In this document: positions 1,703 through 51,505 of the stretch, piece after piece
Layout: each line of letters opens with the position of its first letter
Numbering within the stretch: the first letter of the stretch is position 1
Source: Parcubacteria group bacterium
GTDB taxonomy: Bacteria > Patescibacteriota > Minisyncoccia > Portnoybacterales > UBA2143
NCBI GenBank assembly: GCA_002685955.1
Contig: NYYU01000006.1
Location: 1-61,188, forward strand
Direction: 5' to 3'
DNA length: 61,188 bases
The notes under the pieces: model-generated
What the model was told of the DNA's origin: nothing
Databases searched by the model: none
Seen by the model: the letters and a program-made list of their open reading frames with translations, nothing else
Translations under genes and position numbers: made by a program

Positions 1703-3031
1703 TTATTCTAAAATATCTATTACCTCCCAATCCCGCTCAATAATCTTTTCTTTAATATATTCCTTTTGATTGTTTTTAGTAACAAATCTAAAAGACAAGC
1801 TGTCTACGCCTATTTGCTTCTGAACTAAAAGCTTGTAAGTGCCATTCTGTTTAACCTTTTCAGATATTTCAGGTAAAAGATATTTAAATTCAATTACCTT
1901 TTGCTGACCAGTCGGTATTTTAATCCAATTGCCAAAAACTGTTTTTCCTAATTCATCAATAAACGCTGTCATGTCTTCAAGACCGTTTGCTTGTAAAAGC
2001 CAGCTTCCCTGAGGCGCATAAATTCTTAAATATGCTCGGTAATCATCATTAAACCAATCCTTAGCTCCCCCAGTATGCGTATAAATAATCCTTAAGGTCG
2101 CTTCTGGTCTTTCCTTGTCTAAATCAAGCTCGTACTCTACTTGTCGGGTGATAAAAAAGTTGCTTTTGCGAGCGGCTAAGTTAGCTTCAACAATCATTAA
2201 ATAATCAGCTTGATAGGTTTGGTTAACTTGGCCGGCCCAGCCTTGAGCTGAAATTATTCTCTGAACTTCTTCATCTTGAAAATACAAAAGGATATTTTTT
2301 CTGTTTAATTCCTTTAAGGCCAAATCTTTAATTTTCCGCTGTTCCCAGAAACTATCTTTGGCTAAGCGAGTTAAAATTTCTTGACCTAGGGCTTTAAGAA
2401 TTGTTTTTCTTTCTCCCCTAACAAGGCCTCGTTCTAGATATCCTTGCTCTACTTCATATTCTAATTGATAAAGCGCGTCTTCAGCTTGAAACTCTTTATC
2501 AAATTCAGTTAGATAAATCGGACCGGTTAATTTTAATAATTCAGGCAGAATTGAGGCATTAATTCCGATAATGCCGTCAAATTCTTCCAGACCGCCTTGA
2601 AGATGATAAAAATATTCAACTTGCTGAGCTGAAATAATAAAATCGGGCGACCAGTTACCATCTCTCATTTGCCAGTTATTTACTTTTAAATGATCTTTAA
2701 TTGGTTGGGGCGGATCGGTTTGGACACTGCCAAAACCATCAAAAATATTAGTATCGTGTATTTGAAAGAAAGTTACTTGACCATTTTTAACTTTAATAAT
2801 GGCAAAGCTGCCCAAATAACCGCCGCTTGGTCTTAATTCTAAATTATTCTGTAAAAGCAAAAGATAAGTTTTTTCTTGGCCCAAACCAGTCAATTTAGGA
2901 ATTAATTTCCAATAAGAAATTTCTTGGGTTTGGTTCAAGATCCAGCCTTTTTGCCATATTAAAAAACCGCCGATTAGGACTAAAATGATTGAAAAACTAA
3001 TTAAGATTTTAATGGTGTTTGACTCTTTCAT
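1703..3031 (-). CDS. DUF4012 domain protein with N-terminal TM anchor
   Basis: LRPSGGYLGSFAIIKVKNGQV motif typical of DUF4012. Sits in glycan-cluster context. Confidence 0.7.
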   Translation of the reverse strand: MKESNTIKILISFSIILVLIGGFLIWQKGWILNQTQEISYWKLIPKLTGLGQEKTYLLLLQNNLELRPSGGYLGSFAIIKVKNGQVTFFQIHDTNIFDGFGSVQTDPPQPIKDHLKVNNWQMRDGNWSPDFIISAQQVEYFYHLQGGLEEFDGIIGINASILPELLKLTGPIYLTEFDKEFQAEDALYQLEYEVEQGYLERGLVRGERKTILKALGQEILTRLAKDSFWEQRKIKDLALKELNRKNILLYFQDEEVQRIISAQGWAGQVNQTYQADYLMIVEANLAARKSNFFITRQVEYELDLDKERPEATLRIIYTHTGGAKDWFNDDYRAYLRIYAPQGSWLLQANGLEDMTAFIDELGKTVFGNWIKIPTGQQKVIEFKYLLPEISEKVKQNGTYKLLVQKQIGVDSLSFRFVTKNNQKEYIKEKIIERDWEVIDILE

Positions 3032-4244
3032 AGATTTTAATTATCTTCTTATAATGATTCTCCGGGTTATACTTGCTTAAAACCTGTGCTTGGCCCTGCC
3101 GGCCCATTTGATTAATTAATTTTAAATGTTTCAAGGCCCAAGCCATCTTGGCTGACAAATCATTTTGATTATTGGGCTTAAATAGCAAGCCAGTTTTCAT
3201 ATTTTTAATCATTTCGGACAAACCGCCAATTTTAGCGGCCATGACCGGCTTGGCCAAAGCTAAGCTTTCTAAAACAGCATAAGGAAAATTCTCTGGCCAG
3301 AGCGAAGGTACAATTATTGAACAAGCATTAGCAATGGTTTTTTGCAGCAATTTACCTTTTTTTATGCCCAAAAATTCTATTTGTTGATGATAGCCAGCTA
3401 ATTTTTCTAAATTCTCTTTTTCTGGACCATCCCCAGCTATCTTCAACTTTACTTGCGGAAATTGATCTGAAATTTCTAAAAAGGATCTGATTAATAAATC
3501 AACTCCCTTTTCCCGGCTCAAACGACCAAAATATAGTAAATACGAATCTTTATTTGACGGAGTTAAGCTTAAAGATGATTTATTAACAAAATATGGAAGA
3601 TAAACTATCTTTTCTTTAGGAATCCCCCAAGCTAAAGCTTTTCTTTTAAGGAATAAACTAGGCGCTAAAAAAACATCTATCTGCTCAGCTACTTTTAAAA
3701 AATCTCTTTGCCAGATGCCCTCTAAATAACCGCCCAAGCTTTCAATATATGAATCTTTAATACATTTTTTAGTTAAACAAAAACGATAATCTTTTTCTTT
3801 TAAACAGTCAAAACAAGCTTGTTTCTGGGAAAAGAACTTATAATTCGGGCAAAAAAGCTTGTAATCATGCAAAGTCATTGCGATGGGGATATTGTATTTT
3901 TTTAAAGCAAAAATAATTGATGGTGAAAAATGACTGAAAATGTTGTGAAGATGCGCTATATCTGGCTTTTTATATTTAACAATTTTCTCTAGTTTCTTTT
4001 TTGCCTCCTTGTTCCAAAAAATTCGTCTGGCTTTTTTAAAAACCTTACTGAATCCTGGTTGATCAGAAAAATCAATAAGCTTGGCAAAATCCTTTTCTTC
4101 AGGCAAATGGAAGTTTTGAGGATGTTGAGCGCTCCAAACTGAAACCTGATGAGCTTTTTTAGTCAAAAGCTCCGCTAAGTCAAAAAAATATCGCTCTGCT
4201 CCCCCCTTAATGAAGAAAAACTTATTTATCTGTAATACTTTCAT
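3009..4244 (-). CDS. Glycosyltransferase, GT4-type
   Basis: MKVLQINKFFFIKGGAERYF N-terminus; C-terminal EN..FPYAVLESLALAKPV GT4 motif. Confidence 0.85.
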   Translation of the reverse strand: MKVLQINKFFFIKGGAERYFFDLAELLTKKAHQVSVWSAQHPQNFHLPEEKDFAKLIDFSDQPGFSKVFKKARRIFWNKEAKKKLEKIVKYKKPDIAHLHNIFSHFSPSIIFALKKYNIPIAMTLHDYKLFCPNYKFFSQKQACFDCLKEKDYRFCLTKKCIKDSYIESLGGYLEGIWQRDFLKVAEQIDVFLAPSLFLKRKALAWGIPKEKIVYLPYFVNKSSLSLTPSNKDSYLLYFGRLSREKGVDLLIRSFLEISDQFPQVKLKIAGDGPEKENLEKLAGYHQQIEFLGIKKGKLLQKTIANACSIIVPSLWPENFPYAVLESLALAKPVMAAKIGGLSEMIKNMKTGLLFKPNNQNDLSAKMAWALKHLKLINQMGRQGQAQVLSKYNPENHYKKIIKIYERVKHH

Positions 4245-5341: not shown

Positions 5342-6551
5342 AAAACAATCAAGAAAACTATTCTATTTTTTATTAAGCTTAGTCCTTTTAAGGCCTAGTT
5401 TAGACATTACCAGTCAAATAGAATTCCAAATTCATCCAAGTCTGCCCCTAATGAATCCTAATATTATTATCGGCGGATTGGTTTTTTTAATTAGTCTGCT
5501 CTTTTATTTTAAAAACCTGAAAAATATTCATGCGATTCCCCTTTTCTATCCTATTTTTCTGACGATCGGCCTGTTTCTGATAAGTATTTTCTATTCGGTT
5601 AACGCCTTTGCCAGTATTAGAGAATTTATTCGTTTTAGCGCTATTTTCCTTTTGTATTTCTTAGCTTATTGGCTAATTGAAAACAGAAAAGATTTCTATT
5701 TATTGCTCAAAGCCATCATCATCAGCTATTTTCTGCCTAGCTTGGTTGCTTTGGTCCAATTAGTTTTTGGTTTAGGCCTACCTGATGATTTTGGCGGTTT
5801 TAAAAGAATTTATGGCACTTTTGCTCATCCTAATCCTTTTGCCTTTTATACCTTTTTCATTGTCGGATTAACTCTCTGTTTATTATTATCCCTCCAACAA
5901 AGTAAAAAGGATGATCAAATTAAAAAATATTTCCCATATTTTTGGCTCTTTGCCGGCTTAGCGATTTTCCTTCTTTTTGCCACTTATACTCGCAGCGCCA
6001 TCGCCTGCCTTTTTATCTTTATGGCTATTTTTGGTATTTTCAAATACCGCAAAATTCTTTTAATGGGCGTTTTACTTTTCTTTTTTGCTTATTTTTTCTC
6101 TGATGTTTTTCAAGAGCGTCTTTGGGAAATGATTACTTTAGATCCCTATGGTTCAATTATTTGGCGCTTCCGTCTTTGGCGGGATATTATTCCTATATCG
6201 CTCTGGCAGCCTTGGTTTGGCTATGGAGCAGGAACCTTTACAAAAATAGTTGAATTTTACCGAGGGTTTAGATGGGGCAGCTTAGACGCTCATAATGATT
6301 ATTTAAAAATCTTTATGGAAAATGGCTTAGCCGGCCTGGTCGCCTATGGCTGGCTGATACTTGGTCTTTTTTCTTATCTTTTCAAAATATTCAAAAAATC
6401 CATTGACCAAGATAAAGTTTTAACTTTAGGCATCCTGGCAATTAGTTTAAGTTTATTTATGATTGCTTCAGTTGATAATGTTCTGCGCGGCACTGCTTTA
6501 CAATGGAATTTCTGGATTTTGATTGCCGGTTGGTTTAAATTAAAAGCTTGA
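5325..6551 (+). CDS. O-antigen ligase/polymerase-like (Wzy_C family) membrane protein
   Basis: About 10 TM helices; the loop TRSAIACLF...GAGTF...AHNDYLKIFMENG resembles the O-antigen ligase family. Confidence 0.7.
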   Translation: MENVNTKQSRKLFYFLLSLVLLRPSLDITSQIEFQIHPSLPLMNPNIIIGGLVFLISLLFYFKNLKNIHAIPLFYPIFLTIGLFLISIFYSVNAFASIREFIRFSAIFLLYFLAYWLIENRKDFYLLLKAIIISYFLPSLVALVQLVFGLGLPDDFGGFKRIYGTFAHPNPFAFYTFFIVGLTLCLLLSLQQSKKDDQIKKYFPYFWLFAGLAIFLLFATYTRSAIACLFIFMAIFGIFKYRKILLMGVLLFFFAYFFSDVFQERLWEMITLDPYGSIIWRFRLWRDIIPISLWQPWFGYGAGTFTKIVEFYRGFRWGSLDAHNDYLKIFMENGLAGLVAYGWLILGLFSYLFKIFKKSIDQDKVLTLGILAISLSLFMIASVDNVLRGTALQWNFWILIAGWFKLKA

Positions 6552-35220: not shown

Positions 35221-35257
35221 CCCGATGCAAGATCGGGACTCCGACTTTACGTCGGAG
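35221..35257. repeat. GC-rich tandem double hairpin between tRNA-Thr and rpmG
   Basis: CCCGAT-GCAAG-ATCGGG (35221-35237) and CTCCGAC-TTTAC-GTCGGAG (35239-35257). Confidence 0.5.
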
Positions 35258-35327
35258 CCGACGCTCGGATTCGAACCGAGGACCTACTCCTTACCATGGA
35301 GGCGCTCTACCACTGAGCTACGTCGGC
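35256..35327 (-). tRNA. tRNA-Thr(GGU)
   Basis: GCCGACG-TA-GCTC-AGTGGTA-GAGC, anticodon loop ATGGTAA, T-arm CTCGG-TTCGAAT-CCGAG. Confidence 0.88.
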
Positions 35328-35334
35328 AATTTTA

Positions 35335-35682
35335 CTATTTTTGACTATTTATTAATCCTAATAACATTTTAGATAATGTTTCAAATTTTTGGTAAAAATC
35401 GTTAAACTTTTCTTTATGAATCTGATTTTCATCAAATATTAATTCAAATAACGATACACATTCATATACTGAACCTCTTGAAATTATATAAAAATTCCTT
35501 TTATCTGGTTTTGAAAATTTTCCACTTCCTTCAGCAATGTTTATCACAATACTTATTGATGCTCGTTTAAGTTGATTACGAATATAAGAATCTATTTGTT
35601 TATTTTATCTCAAAAAACTTAAAACCTTTCTATTTAACTCTTTAGCTTTCTTATAAACATCTAAATTTTCAAAATCAAACAT
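35335..35682 (-). pseudogene. Four-helix-bundle protein (23S rRNA intervening-sequence protein family) with an in-frame TAA
   Basis: ATG at 35680-35682 gives MFDFENLDVYKKAKELNRKVLSFLR, then TAA at 35605-35607, then the same frame continues NKQIDSYIRNQLKRASISIVINIAEGSGKF... Confidence 0.75.
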
Positions 35683-35819
35683 AAATCCTGTAATTCGTGT
35701 GAGTAATTTGTAATTAGGGATAAATTTTTCGCTAAAATCTTTATAAAATAATTCATTGCGCCAATTACAAAATACAAATTACTAATTACTCAAATTTTGA
35801 GTGAAGCGAAAAATTTATG

Positions 35820-35901
35820 TGGGCGGTGAGGGACTCGAACCCCCGTAGTCCGAAGACGTCAGATTTACAGTCTGATGCAATTGCCGCTATGCGAACCGCC
35901 C
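35820..35901 (-). tRNA. tRNA-Tyr(GUA), long variable arm
   Basis: Acceptor GGGCGGT/ACCGCCC, anticodon arm CAGA-CTGTAAA-TCTG, variable arm, T-arm GGGGG-TTCGAGT-CCCTC. Confidence 0.88.
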
Positions 35902-35902
35902 C

Positions 35903-35984
35903 TGGAGCCAGTGAGGGGAATCGCCCGGGTATACACCCGGGCGGCAGGGTGTATACCCTGCCGAACCCCCTCTCTCTAACTCAG
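35903..35984 (-). other. 3' half of a split tRNA-like gene (T-arm with 40-nt double-hairpin insert, acceptor 3' strand, CCA)
   Basis: GGGGG-TTCG[GGCAGGGTATACACCCTGCC GCCCGGGTGTATACCCGGGC]ATT-CCCCT-CACTGGC-T-CCA. Confidence 0.45.
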
Positions 35985-36056
35985 AGCCCACGGACGGATT
36001 TGAACCGCCGACCAACTGTTTACAAAACAGTTGCTCTACCACTGAGCTACGTGGGC
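35985..36056 (-). tRNA. tRNA-Thr(UGU)
   Basis: GCCCACG-TA-GCTC-AGTGGTA-GAGC-A-ACTGT-TTTGTAA-ACAGT-TGGTC-GGCGG-TTCAAAT-CCGTC-CGTGGGC-T. Confidence 0.9.
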
Positions 36057-36150
36057 ATAAACTAAACAATGCTCCCCGCCAAAAGCTACGCAATTTGGCG
36101 GGCCCGCCTGCATGCAAGGCTTGCGACGGGTACCATTGAGCTACACTGGC
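36057..36150 (-). other. 5' half of the split tRNA-like gene (acceptor 5' strand, D-arm with 56-nt double-hairpin insert)
   Basis: GCCAGTG-TA-GCTC-AATGGTA[two GC-rich hairpins at 36130-36103 and 36102-36075]GAGC-A... Confidence 0.45.
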
Positions 36151-36152
36151 AA

Positions 36153-36848
36153 TTACTTTATCTTCATATTTTTGATTTCTTCCAAAACCTTTTTCACTTT
36201 ATTATCTTTTGAACCAAGCTTAACAGCCATTTCTAATGAAGATTTAGCATCAACATAATTATGCTGTTTCCAGTAGAGAAAACCTAAGAATTTGTAAGCA
36301 GTGATGTTTTTAGGATTCTCAATAATCAAGTTAATCCACTTTTGCTCTTCTTTAATTGGCTTTTTTAAATCATCAAGTGAAAGCTGATCTTCATCTTCTT
36401 CTGATTCAAACTCTGGTTCTGGAATAATTTCTTTTTCTCCCTCTATCTTATCTATTTTAATGGAAATTTCACTTTCTGGCTTAGGAGTTAATTCATTTTT
36501 AGGAATACGCCGCTTCATTTCTTTCTGCTTAATCCATTCCTTTGATTTCTGAGTCATTATTTGCGATTGATTGCTCAATCCTCTAATCCACTTACTCAAT
36601 AAATTCTCTATTTTTAAAAAGATAATCTTTAATCTACGCAAGAGTTTTTCTAAAAATATCATGAAATTAAGCCAATGCTGCTTGTAATCAACTTCTTGAA
36701 TTCTTTGAACTACTCCTTTTTTTCTGCTCAAAATAGTTAATTCTTCTTCTGATAGACCAGCCAAAACAGAAACTTTCCGATAAACAATAATTCCTAAACC
36801 AATTAGGCTCAAACCAATAGCTATATAAAGAATTATGACTATAGACAT
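36153..36848 (-). CDS. Hypothetical membrane-anchored protein with acidic linker and C-terminal TPR-like repeat
   Basis: N-terminal TM helix; the C-terminus AYKFLGFLYWKQHNYVDAKSSLEMAVKL is TPR-like. Confidence 0.4.
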   Translation of the reverse strand: MSIVIILYIAIGLSLIGLGIIVYRKVSVLAGLSEEELTILSRKKGVVQRIQEVDYKQHWLNFMIFLEKLLRRLKIIFLKIENLLSKWIRGLSNQSQIMTQKSKEWIKQKEMKRRIPKNELTPKPESEISIKIDKIEGEKEIIPEPEFESEEDEDQLSLDDLKKPIKEEQKWINLIIENPKNITAYKFLGFLYWKQHNYVDAKSSLEMAVKLGSKDNKVKKVLEEIKNMKIK

Positions 36849-38278: not shown

Positions 38279-38605
38279 ATGAAAAAGAAAATCCATCCTA
38301 CTTATTATCCTAAAGCTAAAGTTAAATGCGCCTGCGGCGCTACTTTTGAAGTTGGTTCAACTAAAAAAGAAATTGAAACAGAAATTTGTTCTCAATGCCA
38401 CCCGTTTTATACAGGCAAAGAAAGAATTATTGAAACGGGCCAAGTAGAAAAATTCAGAGAACGGATGGCTAAAAAACAAGTTACTAAGTCTAAAAAAGCC
38501 AGGGTTAAAAAGCCCCGACCTGACCTAAAGTCGGGATCCCGACCGCAAAGCGCGTCGGGAAAGACCAGAGTTAAAAAAAAGAAAAAAGAAAAAAAGAATG
38601 ATTAA
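38279..38605 (+). CDS. rpmE: 50S ribosomal protein L31 (Cys-type) with basic C-terminal extension
   Basis: [14 protein letters not shown]...[10 protein letters not shown] motif; about 40 extra basic residues follow. Confidence 0.88.
38513..38560. repeat. GC-rich tandem double hairpin inside the rpmE 3' extension
   Basis: CCCGAC-N10-GTCGGG (38513-38535) and TCCCGAC-N10-GTCGGGA (38537-38560). Confidence 0.5.
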
Positions 38606-39341
38606 AGATATTATTGTGGAAATCAGATCTGGCGCGGGCGGAGAAGAAGCAGCCCTTTTCGCGGCTGATCTCTTCCGGATGTATTCCCGCTTTGCTGAAA
38701 AACAGGGTTGGTCAACTAATCTAATTTCCAGCAGCCAAACTGGCCTAGGCGGCTACAAGGAAATTATTCTTGAAATAAAAGGAGAGGATGTCTTTAAAAA
38801 ACTAGAATATGAAGGCGGGGTTCATCGAGTCCAGCGCATCCCCAGCACTGAAAAATCAGGCCGAGTTCATACCTCAACTGTTTCAGTCGCCGTTATGCCC
38901 ATGGCTAACGAAACAGAAATTAAGATTAATCCTCGGGATTTAAGAATTGATGTTTTACGAGCTTCCGGACCAGGCGGACAGTATGTTAATAAGCGCGAAT
39001 CAGCTGTTCGGATTATTCATACGCCCACCGGCTTAATGGTCACTTGTCAAGAAGAAAGAACCCAGCAGCAGAATAAAGAGAGAGCCATGAAGGTATTGCG
39101 GACTCGTCTTTTGGATAAAAAAAGACAGGAAGAAATGTCTTTAAGAGGAGATACGCGACGAGAACAGATTGGCCATGCAGACCGTTCTGAAAAAATCCGC
39201 ACCTATAACTTCCCTCAAAACCGAATTACAGACCATCGTATTAATAAATCATGGCATCAATTAGATAAAATTATTGATGGAGGCTTAGAACCAATCATTA
39301 AAACTTTTAATAAAGTTAAACATGAAAAAAAGAATCTTTAG
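38598..39341 (+). CDS. prfA: Peptide chain release factor 1-like, lacking N-terminal domain 1
   Basis: PST (PxT-type) codon-recognition tripeptide, [13 protein letters not shown] motif. The frame is closed upstream by TAA at 38526-38528. Confidence 0.85.
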
Positions 39342-40305
39342 CGGCATTCGTCCAACTGGGCCTCTTCATATCGGCAATTATTTAGGCGCCATTAAAAATT
39401 GGCTGCAGCTCCAGAATGAATATGATTCTGTTTTTTGCATTGTTGATTTACATGCCCTAACTACGCCCAATGCCTCTAAAGGATTAAAGAAAAAAGTTTT
39501 CGATCTGGCCACTACTTATTTAGCCGCCGGACTTAATCCTAAAAAATGTATTCTTTTTGTCCAATCCCAAGTCCCAGAGCATACTGAATTAACCTGGCTT
39601 TTAAATACAGTTACGCCTATTGCTGAACTAGAAAGAATGACCCAATTTAAAGATAAAGCCAAAGAACATCGTTCTAATGTTAATATGGGTCTTTTTGACT
39701 ATCCAGTCTTAATGGCCGCCGATATTCTCATATATCAGACCGACCTTGTGCCGGTAGGCGAAGATCAAAGACAACATGTTGAAATGGCCAGAACAATCGC
39801 TCGTAAATTCAATCAAACCTATGGCGCAACCTTTAAAGTACCTGAAGTCTTAATAAGAGAACAAGGAGCTAAGATTTTAGCCCTTGATAACCCCTTGAAA
39901 AAGATGTCAAAAAGTTCCCCTAATTTATATAGTCGGATTAATTTAACCGATTCTCCAGATGAAATTCAAGAAAAGATTAAGAGAGCAATTACTGATTCAG
40001 GCAAAGAAATCACCTATAATCCCCAAAAACCAGCTTTAGCTAATTTAATTACTATTTATTCCGCTTTTTCCAAATTATCAGCTAGTCAAATTGAGAAAAA
40101 ATATCAGGGCAAAGGTTATGCCCAATTTAAAACAGATCTAGCTAATGTGATTATTAAAGCTTTAAAACCATTTCAAGCCAAGAAAAAAGCTCTGGAACAG
40201 GAACCAGAACAAGTTAAAAAAATCTTAGAACAAAGCGCCAAGCAGGCTCAAGCCATCGCTCGAAAAAATCTTAAGGAAGCTAAGCAGAAAATGGGCTTAA
40301 TCTAA
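39322..40305 (+). CDS. trpS: Tryptophan--tRNA ligase
   Basis: [14 protein letters not shown] (HIGH) and KMSKS motifs. Confidence 0.95.
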
Positions 40306-40331
40306 AAAACAAGAGAACAATCAGACGGAAT

Positions 40332-40448
40332 GCGAAGAAAACAAGTTTTTGGAATCGGGGGCGTGGACGCGCTGCTCGAGCCTGCCTGCCGGTAGGCAGG
40401 CGAAGCAAGAGGAGGGTTAAGCGATTTCAAAAATTTAGTTTTCGGAGC
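40332..40448 (+). repeat. Copy A of a ~100-nt palindromic repeat family (carries a nested 20-nt palindrome)
   Basis: GCGAAGAAAACAAGTTTTTGGAATC...GCGATTTCAAAAATTTAGTTTTCGGAGC. Confidence 0.7.
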
Positions 40449-51485: not shown

Positions 51486-51505
51486 CCTGCCTACCGGTAG
51501 GCAGG
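51486..51505. repeat. Perfect 20-nt GC-rich palindrome CCTGCCTACCGGTAGGCAGG
   Basis: Read directly. Related copies lie at 40381-40400 and 55145-55160. Confidence 0.7.

Follow-up and report, generated by a model that had tools for sequence, protein, structure and literature searches.

Why would a bacterium carry a complete transfer RNA (tRNA) gene between the two halves of another one? The question is raised by a 248-nucleotide (nt) feature, positions 36150-35903 on the minus strand of a 61-kb contig (NYYU01000006.1, positions 1 to 61,188; the whole of this stretch is called the window below), which comes from a marine member of the Patescibacteria, a Parcubacteria/Portnoybacteria-like organism whose nearest GTDB species shares 78% identity in ribosomal protein S2. 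Here an intact tRNA-Thr(UGU) is enclosed by the 5′ and 3′ parts of a second tRNA-like gene, the D-loop and T-loop of which each hold a pair of GC-rich hairpins. A sequence-only reading of the locus had offered three explanations: a tRNA gene wrecked by three insertions, a composite precursor, or a tRNA with non-canonical intervening sequences. Our comparisons support the first of these, with the ancestral tRNA-Thr(UGU) as the wrecked gene and its replacement as the middle insertion. We consider it probable that the outer halves are a decaying relic of the original tRNA-Thr(UGU) of this lineage and that the nested tRNA has taken its place.

Every sequence element previously described for this nest was found where it had been placed, on the minus strand and base for base. 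In transcript order, the outer shell opens at 36131-36150 with the acceptor 5′ strand GCCAGTG, the bases TA, the D-stem 5′ strand GCTC and the D-loop AATGGTA. At the 3′ end of this D-loop sits a 56-nt insertion (36075-36130) made of two GC-rich hairpins, 36130-36103 and 36102-36075, with folding energies of −13.9 and −15.4 kcal/mol, after which come the D-stem 3′ strand GAGC (36074-36071) and the A of position 26 (together 36070-36074). The place of the relic anticodon arm is occupied by a 5′ connector, TTGTTTAGTTTAT (36057-36069; in its 14-nt version ATTGTTTAGTTTAT, 36070-36057), then by the intact inner tRNA-Thr(UGU) (35985-36056), and finally by a 14-nt 3′ connector, CTGAGTTAGAGAGA (35971-35984), the trailer of the inner tRNA. 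The shell resumes at 35962-35970 with the T-stem 5′ strand GGGGG and the first four T-loop bases, TTCG. A 40-nt insertion at relic positions 57/58 (35922-35961) consists of two GC hairpins of 8 base pairs (bp) each, the second an inverted copy of the first (−14.4 and −15.9 kcal/mol), and the relic ends at 35903-35921 with the end of the T-loop (ATT), the T-stem strand CCCCT, the acceptor strand CACTGGC, a discriminator T and an encoded CCA. The previously described 7/7 pairing of the outer acceptor strands, the encoded CCA and the hairpin pairs in both loops are all present. As a whole, the 248 nt are predicted to fold into a cloverleaf shell enclosing a cloverleaf (z = −7.5 against shuffled sequences).

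The identity of the shell became apparent from gene order. In the window, the order is rpsB, tsf, a TPR-like open reading frame (ORF) of 231 amino acids (aa), Thr(UGU), Tyr(GUA), Thr(GGU), rpmG and Trp(CCA). This order is retained in the 21 closest GTDB species representatives, though individual genes can be absent (L016, for instance, has no Thr(GGU)), and additional metagenome contigs share it as well. A search for an uninterrupted ancestor in relatives had been suggested at the outset, and it proved decisive: directly past the same upstream gene, 20 of the 21 representatives carry a single, uninterrupted Thr(UGU), the remaining one, L017, being nested as well. With at least three further metagenome relatives (L230 and L231 with complete genes), about 25 relatives in all have the uninterrupted form. 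This ancestral-type gene starts a few bases past the stop codon of the 231-aa ORF and, in most relatives, ends 0-2 nt before Tyr. Likewise, the relic begins 2 nt past the upstream stop codon, just as the normal tRNA does in relatives, and is separated by 1 nt from tRNA-Tyr, a junction identical to that of the uninterrupted tRNA.

The sequence matches point the same way. In L009 and L230, Thr(UGU) reads GCCAGTGTAGCTCAA.GG.AGAGC...GGGGGTTCGATTCCCTTCACTGGCTCCA and has the acceptor GCCAGTG. The 5′ part of the shell plus GAGCA agrees with the L009 gene at 24 of 25 positions, and 35970-35962 plus 35921-35903 agree with both L009 and L230 at 27 of 28, as compared with only 21/25 and 17/28 identity between the outer halves and the tRNA they enclose. 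Judged by these figures, the resemblance is more than chance. Because of its position, its junctions and the two near-complete matches, we identify the shell as the orthologue of the clade's Thr(UGU) gene, minus positions 27-48, that is, the segment comprising the anticodon arm and the variable region. Two other ideas about the shell could be discarded. That the Tyr tRNA was co-transferred with it is ruled out by the mosaic distribution of tRNA types across the clade. The absence of a Gly tRNA from the cluster, which had been raised as a clue to the identity of the shell, was confirmed, but it is clade-wide: no relative has Gly in the cluster and the shell is Thr-type, which rules out a shell standing in for a missing Gly tRNA.

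The inner tRNA-Thr(UGU), in turn, has every appearance of an ordinary gene. Called by ARAGORN, it is canonical and obtains the best tRNA score in the window (Rfam RF00005, 74.9 bits). It does not encode CCA, whereas the relic and most orthologues in the clade do. Compared with other Thr(UGU) genes, it is 87.7% identical to that of L061, a distant member of the Patescibacteria, and 80-84% identical to those of its own clade, which suggests a foreign origin. The 5′ connector may be read as an A/U-rich leader that was brought in along with it. As one part of the relic-and-replacement reading, we regard the inner tRNA as the likely working gene and the only functional Thr(UGU) of the nest.

If the shell is a relic, its sequence should be free to change, and such change is what the relatives display. 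The two closest ones, contigs L226 and L227, were found via the adjacent protein (73-74% identity), and in both the inner tRNA (GCCCACGTAGCTCAGGGGTAGAG...) is the same as in the window. (An RNHCP-anchored contig, P0241, begins just short of the tRNA cluster.) In L226, the shell reads GCCAGCG-TA-GCTT-AATGG, then continues with a 19-nt fragment of the inner tRNA and one hairpin, and then with GAGCA-CTATCTAATTTAT; GAGCA is thus conserved, and the D-loop insertion occupies the same site as in the window with different content. The L226 connector CTATCTAATTTAT shares with the TTGTTTAGTTTAT of the window only the TTTAT end. In L227, all that is left of the outer 5′ half ahead of the inner tRNA is GCCAGTGTA. 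The nest of L017 has a T-loop double hairpin at the same position as in the window but of different sequence, two AT-rich hairpins in the D region, and an outer gene which has lost its D-stem 3′ strand and has one T-stem mismatch. The shell is missing from L015, which is 93% identical to L017 in three proteins and its sister at 100% bootstrap. A single origin of the nests in the window and L017 is ruled out by the tree, in which L017 groups with the shell-less L015 and the window falls elsewhere.

A clean further nest, Thr(CGU) in a Thr-like shell, lies at L095:3540-3705 (−), on a Nealsonbacteria-like metagenome contig. Its outer D- and T-arms are free of insertions, with one T-stem mismatch, and the outer anticodon arm is replaced by a perfect 13-bp helix, ACCCCGCCCTTTA/TAAAGGGCGGGGT, bearing the intact tRNA-Thr(CGU). 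It came out of a metagenome scan for T-loop insertions in which 15 of 16 matches were false positives, and was found for a reason other than the one scanned for. Its relatives have a plain Thr(CGU) (e.g., L235) or nothing at this spot, with no nest among them. As far as these sequences tell, the shell decays and the distribution of nests is sporadic.

How might such a nest have arisen? In the scheme that we favor, the anticodon arm and variable region of the original gene would have been swapped for about 100 nt that hold an entire tRNA-Thr(UGU) of another, probably foreign, sequence between a short leader and a short trailer, while GC-rich palindromic hairpin pairs would have inserted into the D-loop and T-loop of the relic. 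Loss of a working copy would not be survived where the disrupted tRNA is single-copy and essential, and therefore only restoring inserts would persist; the nest would be tolerated in that the insert restores the sole Thr(UGU) gene. A candidate origin is a double-strand break in the resident gene, repaired from a foreign tRNA-Thr template, with selection then keeping only those products that restore the sole Thr(UGU) gene. This route is plausible. In relatives, homing-endonuclease genes occur at the locus: L020 contains, in the interval that separates its Thr and Tyr genes, an ORF with a LAGLIDADG homing-endonuclease domain (5408-6214, +; PF14528, 8e-11). Related ORFs with an N-terminal helix-turn-helix (HTH) and an 'LYWAEG' motif, neither with a significant Pfam match, adjoin Thr(UGU) in L014 (7968-8612, +) and L015 (7833-8465, +), and the one in L015 extends into the 5′ end of the tRNA gene.

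As for expression, the cluster would be transcribed from upstream. No promoter-like site was found between the upstream gene and the inner tRNA, and so the relic halves must be transcribed as the leader of the inner tRNA and as the spacer before Tyr. In this trivial sense the idea of a composite precursor stands, but nothing beyond it does. Going by general bacterial tRNA biology, RNase P would generate the 5′ ends of both the inner Thr and Tyr, trimming and CCA addition would complete the inner tRNA at its 3′ end, and the relic pieces would presumably be discarded. RNA evidence was sought in two metatranscriptome runs from a shared sample, in neither of which the organism was present.

The hairpins deserve a closer look, as they recur elsewhere. 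A 52-nt copy of the T-loop pair, with 3 differences and again flanked by GGGTTCG...ATTCC, occurs at a second locus on another contig from the same samples at the same depth, where it continues into AT-rich sequence; the window itself holds no further copies. Pairs 93% identical to the T-loop pair of L017 occur in L047, where they lie within 3′ fragments of tRNA-Gly arranged in tandem. There, at 1160-1560 (−), two to three tandem units come after tRNA-Gly(CCC). Each unit comprises a spacer and part of a T-arm, then a double hairpin, then the final 20 nt of that same tRNA, including CCA; in the second unit, one hairpin loop contains additional nested hairpins. The D-loop hairpin of L226, CCTGCCTGCCGGTAGGCAGG, equals two intergenic hairpins of the window at 40380-40401 and 51486-51505 (CCTGCCTNCCGGTAGGCAGG; CCTGCC..GGCAGG), which lack a T-run. 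The GC-rich stretch that holds the first of them (40200-40400, downstream of trpS) matched no Rfam family, and at a permissive threshold Rfam returned tRNAs and noise only for the window and L047. Searches of viral contigs with the two hairpin pairs gave no match.

Dead copies of another tRNA provide a parallel. In several contigs, a truncated pseudo-copy of tRNA-Tyr precedes the intact gene by 120-160 nt, with GC hairpins in its loops. The hairpin is double in L036:9117-9215 (+), where it occupies the T-loop, and in L030:8183-8265 (+), where it occupies the anticodon loop; L038:5096-5170 (+) and L085:8244-8312 (+) have single ones. The L036 copy is identical to the gene up to the T-loop, after which come the double hairpin, a spacer and the intact tRNA. 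Collectively, these sequence comparisons show the hairpins as what appear to be dispersed small palindromic insertions populating the loops of dead tRNA copies in Patescibacteria. Direct repeats of the tRNA-Tyr 3′ end were also seen 26-170 nt downstream of the gene (L088:8430-8635; L060:~3000-3060, +), in the pattern of a classical att scar.

Such patterns bring up a different origin for the relic, which would leave its status as a relic untouched: miniature integrative elements might recombine site-specifically in tRNA loops, with the double hairpins as recombination ends, and bring along tRNA segments or a whole tRNA as repair. The tandem units of L047 with their tRNA-Gly 3′ segments, the tRNA-Tyr copy of L036 with its double hairpin, spacer and intact tRNA, the direct repeats in L088 and L060, and the recurring GGGTTCG...ATTCC flanks of the second copy of the T-loop pair would all fit. 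Integrating mobile elements are known to leave tRNA pseudogenes and displaced tRNA fragments, with att-site duplications at the anticodon loop or T-loop, and the nest shares with these scars the partial tRNA copies beside an intact functional one, the breakpoints in tRNA loops and the location in a hot spot of selfish DNA. A direct repeat of the same tRNA is indeed present in L047, L036, L088 and L060. In the window, however, the fragments enclose the intact tRNA and belong to a different allele, whereas classical integration leaves a displaced fragment of the same tRNA rather than a nest round another allele; the inserted DNA comes to only ~100 nt, and the units to merely 40-160 nt; no integrase, recombinase or transposase gene adjoins the nest or was seen within several kb; and the viral contigs contain no matching sequences. 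We regard this origin as unlikely.

Another familiar comparison is with the REP, BIME and REPIN doublets of bacteria and with the GC clusters and double-hairpin elements of AT-rich mitochondrial genomes, which we take as a lead only. Like these, the hairpins are short GC-rich inverted doublets in an AT-rich genome, present at several loci and, in L047, nested within hairpin loops; unlike them, they have a very low copy number in the 61-kb window and are strongly tied to tRNA loops. No RAYT-type gene was seen in the window, although no scan was aimed at Y1 transposases.

With a chance of being correct about as small as that of the integrative elements, tRNA-in-tRNA nesting could be a specific, recurrent process in which one whole tRNA gene enters another at its anticodon region, and the window would then contain a decayed product of it. 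This possibility arises from phage tRNA arrays. Viral-contig scans for two closely spaced D-arms yielded >100 candidates, which were mostly a 5′ tRNA fragment followed by a tRNA but included several true nests. In two of these, the anticodon loop of one tRNA houses a second one: L116:6110-6262 (+), where removing exactly the inner Asn(GUU) including its CCA restores a canonical tRNA-Lys(UUU), and L120:~630-910 (−), where removing exactly the inner tRNA (called Phe(AAA)) with its CCA restores a canonical tRNA-Asn(GUU). In L106:1669-1820, L107:8097-8250 and L108:1283-1435 (all +), one common shell with acceptor CTGGAAG and anticodon stem CGCGC/GCGCG surrounds inner tRNAs with differing anticodons (GTG versus GTT). 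Further nests have Ile(GAT) within a shell (L151:7335-7490 and L212:3970-4125, both +) or Lys(CTT) within a shell adjoining a tmRNA gene (L204:~250-520, −). Another phage array contains a tRNA-like sequence that has no anticodon arm, GGACTGG-TA-GCTC-AGGGGTA-GAGC-GTC-GGTGG-TTCAAAT-CCATC-TCAGTCC-A (L201:~214-270, +).

The restored outer tRNAs of L116 and L120, the common shell of L106 to L108 and the clean nest of L095 are all compatible with a recurrent process, yet the nest in the window lacks the key property of the phage nests, since no anticodon loop is restored. Our full-text literature searches returned no description of tRNA genes nested within tRNA genes. In the phage nests, the inner and the outer tRNA may both have remained functional: RNase P and 3′ processing may excise the inner tRNA, and the outer anticodon loop would then be closed again by an RNA ligase. 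If such nests are expressed and religated, they would represent a new route of tRNA maturation and a tRNA intron of the bacterial world that depends on protein enzymes.

Could the shell have a function of its own? It might aid expression of the inner tRNA by serving as a tRNA-like scaffold for recruitment of RNase P or for protection of the precursor; or else, once the inner tRNA has been excised, the paired halves might persist as a stable, anticodon-less tRNA-like RNA serving as decoy or substrate mimic. In the window, acceptor stem, D-stem, T-arm and CCA are perfect and the predicted fold of the 248 nt is strong; L017 has the same architecture, the nest of L095 is very clean and its 13-bp helix perfect, and nested tRNAs also occur in phage arrays. 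Even so, the outer 5′ half is broken differently in L226 and almost deleted in L227, both of which retain the inner tRNA, the outer gene of L017 is without a D-stem, T-stem mismatches are present in both L017 and L095, the shell is missing from the 93%-identical sister of L017 and from the relatives of L095, and about 25 relatives carry the same tRNA without any shell.

The connectors do not speak for a scaffold either. It had been proposed that they pair at about 11 of 14 positions, with the Thr tRNA at the tip. That count is correct, but of the 11 pairs only 6 are Watson-Crick, and the helix is no better than that of shuffled sequence (−2.8 versus −2.3 ± 1.6 kcal/mol; P about 0.05 in a fixed register). 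We reject a connector helix in the window, given pairing at chance level and no conservation of it in L017; L095 alone has a true helix, of 13 bp. Taking both versions together, a functional composite appears improbable.

Fainter still are the prospects of an outer gene that is a real tRNA with three removable intervening sequences, one formed by the hairpins in the D-loop, one by the inner tRNA plus connectors and one by the hairpins in the T-loop. Such a tRNA might even be a UAA suppressor with anticodon UUA: when the three insertions are spliced out by hand, ARAGORN gives a 'tRNA-Stop(tta)', with the inner tRNA at position 37/38, and the adjacent ORF of the 23S_rRNA_IVP family has one in-frame TAA. 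The two phage nests which yield canonical tRNA-Lys(UUU) and tRNA-Asn(GUU) upon removal of the inner tRNA lend the idea some further appeal. The call is a strained one, though. It requires that three pairs of a 5-bp stem be G-U, that 3 nt separate the D stem from the anticodon stem, that the variable region be 8 nt long and that position 37 be U. Its 'TTA' falls in TTTAT, a generic leader motif directly upstream of many ordinary tRNAs in AT-rich arrays. Genes of the window, such as the one upstream of the nest, end normally in TAA, and an RF1-type release factor is encoded. With TAA a stop codon, RF1 present, poor geometry and a generic TTTAT, we dropped the suppressor reading and its link to the in-frame TAA of the IVP ORF.

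More generally, the earlier observation that no anticodon arm can be found holds, as none is recoverable by removing the insertions. ARAGORN with intron options called the inner tRNA only and not the outer gene, and of the two, only the inner one forms a complete cloverleaf by covariance model. In Rfam, the halves and hairpins had no match at the gathering score, nor at E ≤ 10 (35300-36300). Nor is the outer gene conserved in close relatives, its 5′ half differing in L226 and being nearly absent from L227, and by orthology the relic is Thr-type. The proposal of non-canonical intervening sequences thus fails, there being no restorable anticodon arm, no intron or tRNA signal in Rfam and halves that decay in the closest relatives.

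Known types of disrupted tRNA genes are no better match. Archaea have non-canonical introns with bulge-helix-bulge motifs in D- and T-loops as well as split and tri-split tRNAs (PMC4090602, PMC3978253). The nest resembles these in having insertions in the D-loop, anticodon region and T-loop of one gene and in its complementary acceptor halves, but it is bacterial, its anticodon arm cannot be recovered and its halves decay in relatives. No bulge-helix-bulge was seen in minimum-free-energy and centroid folds, in which the hairpins abut the D-stem or lie inside the T-loop, and no 3-nt bulges around a 4-bp helix are present at the junctions; removing the insertions does not give a canonical tRNA with a 7-nt anticodon loop, as archaeal-type splicing would. 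Group I introns in bacterial tRNA anticodon loops likewise place foreign sequence in the anticodon region, but the sequence inserted here is a tRNA in its own right, its removal does not bring back an anticodon loop, and no intron family was among the Rfam matches (E ≤ 10, 35300-36300), hence no ribozyme.

A last point of comparison is offered by the intervening sequences of bacterial 23S rRNA, which RNase III excises to leave functional, fragmented rRNA, and which may carry S23/IVP four-helix-bundle ORFs (PF05635). The likeness lies in the extra stem-loops at helix tips and loops of a structured-RNA gene and in an IVP-family ORF only 140 nt away in the cluster of the window; the difference is that the host gene is dead here and that the IVP ORF is a separate insertion.

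Finally, the notion that assembly or binning produced the nest artificially, by fusing a pair of tRNA-Thr alleles that belong to co-existing strains, has next to no probability: many short contigs of the population do end inside the GC hairpins, which accounts for the fragmented assemblies at the locus, but the full-length sequence agrees exactly between ENA/TARA, JGI and Logan assemblies, which were made independently by different projects with different assemblers, Logan contigs of several runs span the whole region without differences, and homologous architecture is found in L226, L227 and L017. The nest is real DNA.

Several observations sit less easily with a decaying relic and its replacement, and keep us from stating that account more firmly. 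For neutral DNA, the remnant is unusually well preserved, with its 7/7 acceptor pairing, D-stem, T-stem and CCA. The acceptor sequence recurs in the non-sister L017, as does the site of the T-loop insertion. Between copies of the hairpins, as in L017 versus L047, the stems differ by compensating changes, which could reflect selection on structure or, equally without selection, self-correction by template switching in palindromes. The comparison with L226 and L227 covers the 5′ half, as these contigs end before the 3′ halves. A foreign origin of the inner tRNA is suggested by a difference of a few percent identity across 72 nt, and we infer the processing and the instability of the outer halves. 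With these points taken into account, the feature is best described as the pseudogene of a disrupted tRNA, situated in a hot spot of mobile DNA and in itself of a known kind, to which the nested replacement adds a twist.

The surroundings of the nest bear out the term hot spot. The relic is followed by tRNA-Tyr(GUA) (35819-35901, −) and tRNA-Thr(GGU) (35254-35327, −), both called by ARAGORN and Rfam, as the next members of the conserved Thr-Tyr-Thr-Trp cluster. The gap between these two is ~2-25 nt in several relatives, with insertions of up to roughly 490 nt in others; in the window, it holds the four-helix-bundle ORF of the 23S_rRNA_IVP family (35335-35682, −), which matches Pfam PF05635 over its full length (E = 5e-26) when read across its in-frame TAA (35607-35605). 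Just upstream of this ORF lie AT-rich inverted repeats (35700-35733 versus 35777-35818). Altogether, the neighbours of the nest are rpsB, tsf, the TPR-like ORF, the IVP ORF, rpmG, an RNHCP gene and a RimK-like gene. With such insertions here and in its relatives, the tRNA cluster is a hot spot for selfish DNA.

Two observations were made further afield. The RF1-type release factor of the window (38598-39341, +) has only 247 aa and begins at the domain-2 motif, without the usual N-terminal domain; the same length is called in identical public contigs. In the relative L237, an IS110-family transposase gene (836-1861, −; DEDD_Tnp_IS110 and Transposase_20) lies just downstream of a gene for an 87%-identical RNHCP protein; on the side that in the window faces the tRNA cluster, its contigs stop 79 nt upstream of this RNHCP gene.

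For annotation, the locus should count as one tRNA plus one pseudogene, with the Thr(UGU) function sitting in the nested copy. Beyond this, the nest illustrates how a single-copy, essential tRNA survives disruption when the disrupting DNA supplies a replacement, an outcome which recurs in several lineages of Patescibacteria. The tRNA clusters of these bacteria emerge as hot spots for homing-endonuclease ORFs, IVP ORFs and GC-rich double hairpins, and the clear preference of the hairpin insertions for tRNA loops provides a tractable entry to an uncharacterized mechanism of insertion.

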